Shown in pieces: positions 2,087 through 5,041 of a DNA stretch of 5,041 nucleotides. The position numbers and the translations under genes were made by a program. Each line of letters starts with the position of its first letter. Position 1 is the first letter of the stretch. The notes under the pieces are model-generated. The model did not search any database, was not told where the DNA came from, and worked only from the letters and a program-made list of their open reading frames with translations. The stretch is from a virus (taxonomy: Duplodnaviria; Heunggongvirae; Uroviricota; Caudoviricetes), in IMG/VR virus record IMGVR_UViG_2585427777_000011, positions 1 to 5,041 of that record. One strand, written 5' to 3'.

Positions 2087-2290
2087 ATGAACCGTGTTCT
2101 GTGTGTGGTGATTATTGTCATGCTGGTAGCCTGTGGTGTGCTTAGTCTGGGGCTGAATCATTACCGCGATAACGCCATCACCTACAAAGCGCAGCGCGAT
2201 AAAAAAGTCAGTGAGCTGAAACTGGCGAATGCCACTATTACTGACATGCAGCAGCGCCAGCGAGATGTCGCTGCGCTTGATGCCAGATAC
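2087..2290 (+). other. Rz-derived segment of the chimeric ORF (N-terminal TMD plus start of the periplasmic coiled coil); junction with J-derived sequence at about 2290/2291
   Basis: Hydrophobic signal-anchor [20 protein letters not shown] followed by the conserved Rz motif [15 protein letters not shown]. Homology switches from Rz to J after ...DARY (codon 68, nt 2288..2290). Confidence 0.8.
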
Positions 2291-5041
2291 CCGAACACGG
2301 CCATTGTGGGGCTGCAGGTGGATGCGGAGCAGTTCGGCGGCCAGCAGATGACGGTGAACTACCATATCCGCGGTCGCATCATCCAGGTGCCGTCAAACTA
2401 TGACCCGGAAAAACGCACGTACAGTGGTATCTGGGACGGCAGTCTGAAACCGGCATACAGCAACAACCCGGCCTGGTGCCTGTGGGACATGCTGACTCAC
2501 CCGCGCTACGGCATGGGAAAACGTCTGGGGGCGGCGGATGTGGACAAGTGGGCGCTGTATGCCATCGGGCAGTACTGCGACCAGACGGTCCCGGATGGTT
2601 TCGGGGGGACCGAGCCGCGGATGACCTTTAATGCGTACCTGGCACAACAGCGTAAGGCGTGGGACGTTCTCAGTGATTTCTGCTCTGCGATGCGCTGTAT
2701 GCCGGTATGGAACGGTCAGACGCTGACGTTCGTTCAGGACCGCCCGTCGGATGTGGTGTGGCCGTACACCAACAGCGATGTGGTGGTGGATGATAACGGC
2801 GTGGGATTCCGCTACAGCTTCAGTGCCCTGAAGGACCGGCACACGGCGGTGGAGGTGAATTACACCGACCCGCAGAACGGCTGGCAGACCTCCACGGAAC
2901 TGGTGGAAGACCCGGAAGCCATACTGCGCTACGGACGCAATCTGCTGAAGATGGATGCGTTTGGCTGTACCAGCCGCGGTCAGGCTCACCGTGCAGGTCT
3001 GTGGGTGATAAAGACCGAACTGCTGGAAACGCAGACGGTGGACTTCACGCTCGGGTCACAGGGGCTGCGTCACACACCGGGTGACATTATTGAAATCTGT
3101 GATAACGACTATGCCGGGACTATGACCGGCGGACGTATCCTGTCCATTGATGCTGCCACCCGCACCCTGACGCTGGACCGTGAGGTTACCCTGCCGGAGA
3201 CAGGTACATCGGCGGTGAACCTGATTAACGGCAGCGGTAAGCCGGTGAGTGTGGACATCACCGCACACCCCGCGCCGGACCGGATACAGGTCAGTACCCT
3301 GCCTGATGGTGTGGAGACATACGGGGTGTGGGGACTCTCCCTGCCGTCACTGCGCCGTTGCCTGTTCCGCTGTGTCTCCGTCCGGGAAAACACGGACGGC
3401 ACCTTTGCCATCACGGCGGTGCAGCACGTACCGGAAAAAGAAGCCATCGTGGATAACGGTGCCCGCTTTGAGCCGCAGTCAGGCTCCCTGAACAGCGTCA
3501 TCCCACCGGCAGTGCAGCACCTGACGGTGGAGGTGAGCGCAGCTGACGGCCAGTATCTGGCGCAGGCGAAATGGGACACGCCGCGGGTGGTGAAGGGTGT
3601 GCGCTTCAGTCTGCGCCTGACCAGTGGTAAGGGAACGGATGCCAGACTGGTGACCACCGCCATCACCGCAGACACGGAGCACCGTTTCAGCGGCCTGCCG
3701 CTGGGGGAATACACCCTGACGGTCAGGGCGATTAACAGTTATGGCCAGCAGGGCGAACCTGCGACCACCACCTTCAGGATTAACGCGCCTGCGGCACCGG
3801 TCACTATTGAGCTGACGCCGGGCTATTTTCAGATAACCGCCACGCCGCATCTTGCCGTTTATGACCCGACGGTACAGTTTGAGTTCTGGTTCTCGGAAAA
3901 GCGGATTGCGGATATCAGGCAGGTTGAAACCGCAGCCCGCTATCTTGGCTCGGCGCTGTACTGGATAGCTGCCAGTATCAATATCAAACCGGGCCATGAT
4001 TATTATTTTTATATCCGCAGTGTGAATACTGTTGGCAAATCGGCATTCGTGGAGGCTGTCGGTCGGGCGAGCGATGATGCGGAAGGTTACCTGGATTTTT
4101 TCAAAGGAGAGATAGGGAAAACACATCTGGCTCAGGAGCTGTGGACGCAGATTGATAACGGTCAGCTTGCGCCTGACCTGGCTGAAATCAGGACGTCCAT
4201 TACGGATGTCAGCAATGAAATCACGCAGACTGTCAATAAGAAACTGAAAGACCAGAGTGCGGCAATCCAGCAGATACAGAAGGTTCAGGTTGATACAAAT
4301 AATAACCTGAACAGCATGTGGGCTGTGAAGCTGCAGCAGATGCAGGACGGACGCCTTTATATCGCGGGTATTGGTGCCGGTATTGAAAACACCCCTGACG
4401 GCATGCAGAGTCAGGTGCTGCTGGCGGCAGACAGGATTGCGATGATTAATCCTGCGAATGGCAACACAAAGCCGATGTTTGTTGGTCAGGGCGATCAGAT
4501 ATTCATGAACGACGTGTTCCTGAAACGCCTGACGGCTCCCACCATTACCAGCGGCGGTAATCCTCCGGCATTTTCCCTGACACCGGACGGGCGGCTGACG
4601 GCGAAAAATGCCGATATCAGCGGTAACGTGAATGCGAACTCCGGGACGCTCAACAACGTCACGATTAACGAGAACTGTCGGGTTCTGGGAAAACTGTCCG
4701 CCAACCAGATTGAAGGCGATCTCGTTAAAACAGTGGGCAAAGCTTTCCCCCGTGACTCCCGTGCACCGGAGCGGTGGCCATCAGGGACCATTACCGTCAG
4801 GGTTTATGACGATCAGCCGTTTGACCGGCAAATTGTTATTCCGGCGGTGGCATTCAGTGGCGCTAAGCATGAGAGAGAGCATACTGATATTTACTCCTCA
4901 TGCCGTCTGATAGTGCGGAAAAACGGTGCTGAAATTTATAACCGTACCGCGCTGGATAATACGCTGATTTACAGTGGCGTTATTGATATGCCTGCCGGTC
5001 ACGGTCACATGACGCTGGAGTTTTCGGTATCAGCATGGCTG
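2087..5041 (+). CDS. Chimeric ORF: first 68 codons of Rz (i-spanin) fused in frame to the central and C-terminal part of a lambda J-like host specificity (tail tip) protein; 985 codons in window, 3' end beyond window
   Basis: Residues 1-68 ([68 protein letters not shown]) match lambda Rz as recalled ([16 protein letters not shown]...[26 protein letters not shown]). From residue 69 ([17 protein letters not shown]...SGIWDG...[38 protein letters not shown]...) the sequence follows lambda J as recalled, including [27 protein letters not shown] and [28 protein letters not shown]. The frame is open to the last base of the window. Not listed in the supplied ORF track because it has no stop in the window. 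Confidence 0.85.

Follow-up and report, generated by a model that had tools for sequence, protein, structure and literature searches.

Some reading frames found in prophage DNA begin as one protein and end as another, which raises the question of whether they are genes in their own right, products of assembly, or traces of what the prophage has lost. The window, meaning the whole 5,041-bp stretch analysed here, is the entire contig JOST01000092.1 of the short-read draft assembly GCA_000713855.1 from 2014, and it holds such a frame: 985 codons (2087-5041, plus strand) that open as the lysis protein Rz and continue as the tail-tip protein J. Translation of this interval meets no stop, as a first-pass annotation of the DNA had claimed, and the 3' end of the frame is the end of the contig because the window is the complete contig; relatives run 28 codons further and then stop. 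Both contig ends lie inside prophage genes of kinds that are repeated across E. coli genomes. The Rz'-'J frame is very probably the scar of an internal deletion, in frame by chance and likely inert, whose endpoint in J is a hotspot.

The two parents of the frame

The start codon of the fusion and the Shine-Dalgarno-like sequence before it (GGTGGTGA) are those native to Rz. Fusion residues 1-68 equal residues 1-68 of the 164-aa Rz (annotated as 'lysis protein') in the JJ1887 prophage of E. coli ST131, and they comprise a short N-terminus, a transmembrane domain (TMD) that is the sole strongly hydrophobic segment of the fusion (hydropathy maximum 2.97), and some 45 residues from the start of the periplasmic coiled coil. 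Pfam Phage_lysis (PF03245) matches residues 29-68 with positions 1-40 of its 126-position profile. The first-pass annotation had assigned 68 codons to Rz; the identity holds over all of them, but the unambiguous part is 67, because codon 68 (TAC, Tyr) is common to both parents. Measured against the two-component Rz/Rz1 spanin, the window thus has an authentic Rz N-terminus, signal-anchor TMD and coiled-coil start, but lacks 97 of the 164 parental Rz residues (about 60%), among them the distal coiled coil and the C-terminus with its contact to the o-spanin Rz1, as well as the embedded Rz1 itself. The parental Rz1 starts ~20 nt past the break in the +1 frame, has the lipobox LVVSAC and a product beginning MRELKMKLCALMLPLVVSAC, and is wholly deleted; no lipobox ORF was found in the alternative frames of the window.

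The remainder of the frame is J. The restart had been put at about residue 430, whereas comparison with a 1157-aa relative and with lambda J places it at Tyr212/Pro213 (the alignment to lambda J, PDB 8iyk chain J, runs from residue 206/212). All five Pfam domains of this part score above threshold, and the last ~28 residues of J fall past the contig end. NCBIfam lambda_TipJ gives 1858.3 bits against a cut-off of 1950, with the profile covered from position 205 only. Identity is 97.7% to the J gene of NCTC86 and 97.1% to JJ1887's own J, and comparison with 237 other J-bearing loci leaves a single private base among 2,754 nt (Table 1).

In terms of lambda gpJ (lambda_TipJ; PDB 8iyk, 8xcg), the fragment is 80-98% identical to J proteins from residue 212 onwards and retains the hub (HDII-HDIV), FNIII-1/2, the helical shaft and central fibre, and the receptor-binding domains. 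Missing are residues 1-211, and with them N-terminal strands of the HDII-insertion domain and almost the whole Ig domain FNIII-A. By published domain limits (PMC10721106), the Ig-like insertion spans residues 72-215. The HDII-insertion and FNIII-A contact gpL and gpI in the tip cone.

Table 1. Features of the 5,041-bp window, in window coordinates.
Feature	Position	Strand	Basis or remark
Class II (P21 S-type) holin gene	3..218	+	Pfam Phage_holin_2_1, E 9e-33; gene order as in JJ1887 prophage
YdfR / DUF1327 gene	223..567	+	Pfam DUF1327, E 7e-43
Phage lysozyme (endolysin) gene	911..1444	+	Pfam Phage_lysozyme, E 9e-24
Terminator-like hairpin, 15-pair stem and T run	1535..1567	+	Consensus scan only
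Three small hydrophobic ORFs (1737-1868, 1832-1987, 1999-2085)	1737..2085	+	Directly 5' of Rz
Rz' (i-spanin codons 1-67)	2087..2287	+	100% identical to JJ1887 Rz; Pfam Phage_lysis
TMD of Rz', residues ~4-22	2096..2152	+	Hydropathy
Crossover interval TAC, Tyr codon 68 (Rz Y68 = J Y212)	2288..2290	+	Three-way alignment
'J, tail-tip/host-specificity protein, residues 213-1129 of 1157-aa J	2291..5041	+	Pfam, PDB 8iyk, NCBIfam lambda_TipJ
Phage-tail_3 domain of 'J	2645..3148	+	Pfam
Sole private 'J substitution, CGC to TGC, R425C (fusion numbering)	3359	+	237 other J-bearing loci compared
Ig_J domain of 'J	3479..3790	+	Pfam
Ig_J_second domain of 'J	3794..4102	+	Pfam
Phage_Tail_Tip domain of 'J	4262..4648	+	Pfam
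Ig_GpJ_C domain of 'J	4733..5035	+	Pfam

The holin gene marks the start of the lysis cassette that forms the context of the frame. The three small hydrophobic ORFs before Rz are kept in the intact relative, and the stretch that contains them is 100% identical to JJ1887. Between the lysozyme gene and the fusion lies the hairpin, which was graded strong and terminator-like.

A probable internal deletion in a JJ1887-type prophage

Both parental arrangements occur intact in one prophage type, that of JJ1887, which combines a lambda-like lysis cassette and tail with an HK97-like head. The left flank of the junction matches it at 100% nucleotide identity over 1445-2290 and at 99.87% over 1-2290. The fusion is directly preceded by the lysis cassette, and the tail genes H, M, L, K and I, present in the intact relative, are absent upstream. 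A contig of 5 kb therein shows flanks that are collinear with one prophage type, the genes of the middle gone, and a short shared sequence at the join. The breakpoint maps to a microhomology, the TAC that Rz and J have in common, within a 7-of-8 imperfect match (TACnCGAA); 2291 is the first position at which J and Rz differ.

In JJ1887 coordinates the deletion measures 21,441 bp, or 18,471 bp once the 2,970-bp ISEcp1-blaCTX-M-15 insertion of that strain is subtracted, which agrees with the loss of about 19 kb that the first-pass annotation had estimated. Its description of a defective prophage with an in-frame Rz-J scar, lacking Rz1, cos and terminase, the head genes and the tail genes up to 5' J, was likewise borne out by comparison with the JJ1887-type prophage. 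A single internal deletion in such a lambdoid prophage would have joined Rz nt 201-204 to J nt 634-636 via TA(C) and removed ~18.5 kb: the 3' part of Rz, Rz1, the HNH and terminase genes, the head and tail genes, and the first 211 codons of J. Recombination between two different prophages is unneeded, because the JJ1887-type prophage's own J is already 97.1% identical to that of the window.

The junction itself was found nowhere else in a search of 5,426 complete E. coli genomes, phage records, GTDB representatives, IMG/VR and metagenomes; a metagenome 20-mer match proved to be an unrelated chance match. A natural J variant with an N-terminal TMD can also be set aside, as no phage or genome record has such an N-terminus on J, and no intact phage J in these records starts with the 68 residues seen here.

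A junction seen only once, on a draft contig that ends at both sides inside repeated prophage genes, could also be a chimera of the library or the assembly, in which a real lysis cassette and a real J were joined artificially. Several sister junctions described below are likewise on draft contigs. Yet only TA(C) is common to the two sides, inside the 7-of-8 match, much less than a k-mer or overlap misjoin would need, and the arms are long (2.3 and 2.75 kb). Moreover, a single prophage type matches the left arm at 99.9% identity and, with its own J, 'J at 97%, and the exact J nucleotide is used in two closed genomes, in ordinary internal prophage deletions. A chimera is consequently very unlikely.

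Scars of this general kind are familiar. In cryptic lambdoid prophages of E. coli, morphogenesis genes have likewise been lost and the lysis cassette brought beside the distal tail genes (J-lom-stf), and lysis-to-tail or packaging-to-tail scars at other positions are common. For instance, independent scars link a lysozyme-side fragment to J, the small terminase to J, and Rz to L. These end elsewhere, in contrast to the present scar, whose J endpoint is a recurrent TA site.

A recurrent breakpoint in J

The same J nucleotide (GTGCTA/CCCGAAC, with TA at J nt 634-635; the fuller right flank reads GTGCTA/CCCGAACACGG) ends 11 distinct leftward and two rightward deletions. The leftward partners are Rz, gpL, gpA (at two sites), Nu1, the portal, FI, FII, a nin-region ORF, a DNA-methyltransferase gene and one partner without an identification; as a left endpoint, the nucleotide is joined toward tfa and toward distal J. 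These deletions span two J allele families. Two of them (L136 and L138) lie in closed genomes as plain internal deletions, and draft assembly can hence be rejected as the source of the recurrent endpoint. The closed genomes also speak against an inserted cassette whose left end would be J at codon 212, since the missing genes do not reappear downstream. A rough estimate from an IMG/VR census puts the share of J copies cut off at exactly this TA at 1-2%.

Not every break in J belongs here. One further candidate user of the site (P0026) turned out to be a different internal deletion, and a second cluster of endpoints at J residues 257-261 involves differing nucleotides and ordinary microhomologies, with no precise hotspot. 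A literature search found no description of a J hotspot or of Rz-J scars, and a breakpoint hotspot of such nucleotide precision seems to be previously undescribed.

When 11 junctions were compared with the natural sequences of their partners, only TA was common to all. Beyond it, the partners resemble J on the retained-J side (32 of 63 positions, P≈1e-5), against 12 of 63 on the other side. Because the likeness is confined to the retained-J side, it points to a fixed DNA end that would anneal elsewhere. As a mechanism, a DNA end may repeatedly be created at the J TA; the strand ending in TA would then anneal at a second TA, upstream or downstream, whose neighbouring bases agree in part with the ~7 nt behind the end, and its extension or ligation would delete everything between. 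From these sequence comparisons, we tentatively propose, with a little less than even confidence, that the J TA is an undescribed fragile or recombinogenic site, at which a recurrent end (a cut, a nick or a replication stop) seeds RecA-independent annealing through imperfect ~9-nt matches anywhere in the prophage and so provides a predictable route to defective lambdoid prophages.

Reuse of a single site to the nucleotide on both its sides, always with a shared TA, would also suit the footprint of a mobile element or a site-specific enzyme, in which case the Rz'-'J join would be enzyme-made rather than a spontaneous slip. Candidates include an element that inserts at TA and leaves flanking deletions on departure (IS200/IS605- or IS630-type), and a 2-nt staggered cut at TA of the serine-recombinase or homing-endonuclease type, with pseudo-sites elsewhere. 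The hotspot prophages do have an invertible tail-fibre segment, and one relative has a recombinase gene downstream. In addition, TTAC, the target of IS608, occurs in five of the first seven junctions. However, the natural sequence is TTAT or TTAA in four partners, so TTAC is not the shared motif and its C is supplied by J; this weakens the case for an IS608-type target.

Nor does the site itself reveal such a history. No IS or other insert was present at the site in ~211 sampled J genes, and a full scan of IMG/VR for the J left flank followed by TA and a non-C base returned no insert: its informative matches were two natural TAT alleles and two deletions, so that continuations other than J were deletions. 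Read by eye, the J site is non-palindromic and bears no resemblance to hix/gix-type sites, and inspection by eye for Chi, EcoKI/EcoBI, EcoP15I, invertase (hix/gix), Int core, IS91 and Tn10 target motifs near it gave nothing convincing. No local DNA hairpin is predicted there (z = -0.07). The one-sided likeness of the partners also suits strand annealing better than recognition of a whole site by a protein, and a footprint of an element or enzyme is on balance unlikely.

Recombination between short homologies has partial precedents. Ikeda and colleagues reportedly described illegitimate recombination that depends on short homology, with hotspots, in the formation of lambda bio transducing phages. 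Relaxed recombination mediated by Red has also been documented (PMC2327257, PMC3945230). Both resemble the present deletions in their very short or imperfect homologies, their preferred sites and their setting in lambdoid prophages; they differ in that here one endpoint is nucleotide-fixed in J, is used in both directions, and involves the 2-nt TA with a one-sided match of ~7 nt.

Prophage decay is usually pictured as deletions that arise at random and then undergo selection. In J, a very common phage gene, a single dinucleotide has served at least 13 independent deletions, and the one-sided similarity behind the fixed end points to a defined molecular event. If the proposal is true, the J TA site would be a major and predictable path by which lambdoid prophages lose their morphogenesis genes. 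Finding the event, be it a nuclease, a replication barrier or a recombinase acting at a pseudo-site, would provide a testable mechanism of prophage disarming as well as a genomic marker.

Fate of the hybrid frame

Most likely, the fusion arose recently and is an inert pseudogene. The scar appears young because 'J has a single private substitution in 2,754 nt. The hybrid gene retains the ribosome-binding site and start codon of Rz. A product, if made, would run from the signal-anchor TMD through 45 coiled-coil residues of Rz into J residues 212-1157. Such a protein cannot work as a spanin without Rz1 and the C-terminus of Rz, and with neither the HDII-insertion/FNIII-A part of J nor any of the partner proteins left, it cannot form a tail tip. 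A consensus scan for sigma-70-like promoters on the plus strand (window 1-2600) found none; with no promoter of its own and the terminator-like hairpin upstream, the frame would need the late transcription of the prophage. It would accordingly be transcribed only with the Q-dependent late operon, if this is still present upstream of the contig.

The first-pass annotation had suggested that the hybrid is anchored in the inner membrane by the Rz TMD and displays J domains in the periplasm, possibly after co-option. The parts displayed would be hub remnants, FNIII repeats, the fibre and the receptor-binding domain, and the protein might hinder infection by J-related phages or have a role in the envelope. 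In favour stand the 985 codons without a stop, read from Rz's own start behind a Shine-Dalgarno-like sequence, the intact TMD, and a break near a domain boundary of J, at the end of its Ig insertion (residues 72-215). 'J is also almost without decay, which a recent deletion explains equally well. The junction is present in a single contig, the frame lacks a promoter, and a search of PADLOC-DB for anti-phage defence matched no family at E <= 0.01. Furthermore, the receptor-binding domain of J targets surface-exposed loops of an outer-membrane protein (LamB: PMC11101478), and a periplasmic copy would face the wrong side.

Framing argues in the same direction. Among the eight junctions at the J site that were ascertained from DNA, and are hence unbiased as to frame, three are in frame and five are out. 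In-frame joining can be attributed to chance, since three in eight is close to the expected one in three, and selection in favour of in-frame J fusions was rejected on the same counts. Periplasmic display thus found no support, and co-option of an expressed hybrid, judged from sequence features, is highly improbable, more so than any of the alternatives weighed above.

As an inert scar, the Rz'-'J frame is by itself minor: it adds to the prophage pseudogenes that a gene caller will take for a large membrane protein. The present junction is in frame, unlike the usual scars, so that a gene caller sees one hybrid protein of ~1013 aa. PGAP labels such pseudogenes 'incomplete; partial in the middle of a contig', and pipelines of the PGAP style split such fusions into two pseudogenes. 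The value for annotation lies in the reminder that in-frame scars can pass as single hybrid genes. In the source collection, the gene call had also fused an upstream 28-codon ORF onto the Rz'-'J frame.

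The Rz'-'J fusion and its parents

The frame from position 2087 runs on the plus strand for 985 codons without a stop, reaching the final base of the window. Pfam places Phage_lysis (Rz) at fusion residues 29-68 and the full J domain set (Phage-tail_3, Ig_J, Ig_J_second, Phage_Tail_Tip and Ig_GpJ_C) from residue ~187 on. The in-frame Rz-J fusion reported by the first-pass annotation is therefore real. It is an ordinary prophage deletion scar, correctly spotted, and what makes it valuable is the nucleotide-precise, two-sided deletion hotspot that it exposed in J, the tail-tip/host-specificity gene.

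Positions 1-2290 differ at only three positions from the undeleted ST131-type prophage of E. coli JJ1887 (NZ_CP014316.1), and over 1445-2290 there is no difference; this stretch takes in the first 68 codons of that phage's 164-aa Rz, as had been claimed. For positions 2288-5041, identity is 97.7% to the intact J of NCTC86 (1157 aa) and 97.1% to the JJ1887 prophage's own J. A three-way alignment places the crossover at TAC (2288-2290), which encodes Tyr68 of Rz and Tyr212 of J, a residue number unchanged in lambda J (PDB 8iyk); the earlier estimate that J resumes at about residue 430 was thus off by ~220 residues. The microhomology proposed as a check is present, as TAC sits within an imperfect 7/8 match, TACnCGAA.

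Measured on JJ1887 coordinates, the deletion is 21,441 bp long. An ISEcp1-blaCTX-M-15 insertion in the tape-measure gene, specific to that strain, accounts for 2,970 bp of it, so the loss in a plain phage amounts to ~18.5 kb, in line with the ~19 kb first proposed. The lost DNA comprises the remainder of Rz with Rz1 embedded in it (Rz1 begins ~20 nt past the break), HNH/terminase, capsid, portal, connector, tail tube, tape measure, M, L, K, I and J codons 1-211. Since the insertion (30349-33318 of the JJ1887 locus) interrupts the tape-measure gene, the 'intact' reference prophage is itself tail-defective. The J-derived part of the fusion carries one private base in 2,754 when compared with 237 J-bearing loci (window 3359, R425C of the fusion), indicating that the deletion is recent and that selection need not be invoked for the intact frame.

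The exact junction does not occur in phage records or in 5,426 complete E. coli genomes, which argues against a J protein that naturally begins with the same N-terminus. It is likewise absent from GTDB representative genomes and IMG/VR, and no junction-spanning protein was found in a 5.8-billion-sequence database. A single metagenome 20-mer match proved to be unrelated sequence.

A recurrent deletion endpoint in gene J

Two chimeras from the protein database, P0012 (lambda gpA'-'J) and P0086 (gpL'-'J), have a J part beginning at the same residue as in the window, and their DNA has the same nucleotide junction, TAC followed by CCGAACACGG. Pattern searches in IMG/VR and BLAST searches of closed genomes yielded further partners (see table). 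The hotspot TA (window 2288-2289) recurs in L013, L014, L073, L136, L138, L245, L305, L307, L310, L340, L373 and L385, and the total comes to 11 distinct leftward events, which keep distal J, and two rightward events, which keep proximal J, in two J allele families. The residual J fragment is exactly 2,841 nt in both L136 and L138, closed-genome loci that are ordinary prophages with an internal deletion, not insertions or rearrangements. It is unlikely that the window contig is chimeric, with Rz and J joined artificially: the shared sequence is only 2-3 nt, each arm is kilobases long, and the J endpoint is identical to that of the verified closed-genome cases.

Three independent scars in closed E. 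coli genomes join a lysozyme-side fragment to J nt ~363 (L001), small terminase to J nt ~1452 (L002) and Rz to L (L003); each is annotated as a pair of pseudogenes and seems to be out of frame. As these end away from the TA, the hotspot overlies a diffuse background. The protein database contains many more J chimeras and internal J deletions (P0005, P0026, P0042, P0043, P0055 and P0032). Among them are gpT' joined to 'J at ~171, terminase' joined to 'J at ~259, and internal deletions with endpoints at J 151, 232 and 261. Illegitimate joins seem to involve J unusually often.

At the join, the natural sequence of four partners is TTAT or TTAA, as seen in intact relatives; the C of TAC is therefore J-derived and only TA is shared. 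J contributes C-CCGAAC... in every leftward deletion and ...GTGC in the rightward ones. Over the next 7 nt, the deleted side of nine partners matches the retained side of J at 32/63 positions (binomial P~1e-5). For the seven partners scored on both sides, this similarity is 25/49 (P~8e-5). The opposite side of the join shows no partner-J similarity (12/63). The tfa partner (L305) has the mirror-image pattern. Such one-sided similarity would be expected if a strand whose 3' end is fixed at TA annealed to an imperfect match and was then extended.

An enzyme or mobile element may drive the hotspot. Structure prediction gives no hairpin at the site, ~211 J genes are all uninterrupted there, by-eye comparison gave no convincing match to the target motifs of known nucleases, recombinases or IS elements, and no description of a J hotspot appeared in the literature searched.

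Reading frame and function of the hybrid

In-frame joins make up six of the 11 leftward events, and three of the six were ascertained by being in frame (two via protein search, the window via the first-pass annotation). Among the eight found by DNA pattern only, three are in frame and five out, matching the one-in-three expectation. There is no sign that J' fusions are retained because of a function.

The same holds for the earlier speculation about co-option as a membrane-anchored J fragment, which nothing supports: in addition to the chance-rate frames, the fusion matches no PADLOC defence family, and no sigma-70-like promoter was found on the plus strand of window 1-2600. The Rz start codon and a Shine-Dalgarno-like GGTGGTGA are retained. 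Given the missing promoter and the hairpin upstream, transcription would need Q-antiterminated late transcription.

A spanin role is dead, because only 40/126 profile positions are present and Rz1 is gone, and so is a tail-protein role, because J 1-211 and all partner genes are missing. The 211 residues correspond to the HDII-insertion N-terminal strands and nearly all of the Ig-like FNIII-A insertion (residues 72-215). In lambda, the partner of the J HDII-insertion/FNIII-A domains in the tip cone is gpI, and that of the J N-terminal region is the gpL C-terminal domain (PMC10721106; PMC11101478). The fusion scores under the cut-off of the curated lambda_TipJ model. Existing knowledge of Rz makes a type II membrane topology plausible for the product. 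A J receptor-binding domain in the periplasm would meet its outer-membrane receptor from the wrong side.

The upstream lysis cassette

The plus strand carries a lambdoid lysis cassette followed by the fusion ORF. All 5,041 bp of the window make up one complete contig, JOST01000092.1, from draft assembly GCA_000713855.1; the open 3' end of the fusion is therefore the contig end, and DNA upstream of the holin lies outside view.

Features of the window and partners joined to J at the hotspot
Feature	Window position or locus	Strand or direction	Basis or context
Class II holin	3-218	+	Pfam
YdfR/DUF1327	223-567	+	Pfam
Antisense ORF, 90 aa	533-805	-	Overlaps ydfR 3' end; hypothetical in RefSeq relatives, e.g. 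WP_000369850.1
Lysozyme	911-1444	+	Pfam
Terminator-like hairpin, 15-pair stem and T run	1535-1567		Between lysozyme gene and fusion ORF
Three small, very hydrophobic ORFs (43, 51, 28 aa)	1737-2085	+	Between lysozyme gene and Rz
nin-region ORF adjoining hok	L073	leftward	
gpFI-like gene	L245	leftward	
Nu1	L310/L390/L396	leftward	
Second gpA site	L385	leftward	
Portal gene	L373	leftward	
One further partner	L340	leftward	
DNA-methyltransferase gene	L136	leftward	HSP425, closed chromosome
Head-tail joining gene	L138	leftward	Z1323CEC0010, closed chromosome
tfa 3' part, ~10 kb downstream	L305	rightward	Hotspot TA is left endpoint
Distal J	L307	rightward	Hotspot TA is left endpoint

The strong terminator-like hairpin lies directly 3' of the lysozyme gene, within what is expected to be a single late operon. 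The antisense ORF has zero Pfam matches. The collection's gene call at 1999..5041 (1013 aa) is an annotation artefact that stitches a 28-codon ORF (1999-2082) to the 985-codon fusion across TGAT (2083-2086). The three small ORFs before Rz are 100% conserved in the ST131 prophage, where they are annotated only as hypothetical, and their products could be additional membrane peptides of the lysis cassette. Two of them are alike in sequence (RALAFAIKWVAVGIAV in one, a similar 16-residue stretch in the other), and their coding strand is markedly T-rich.
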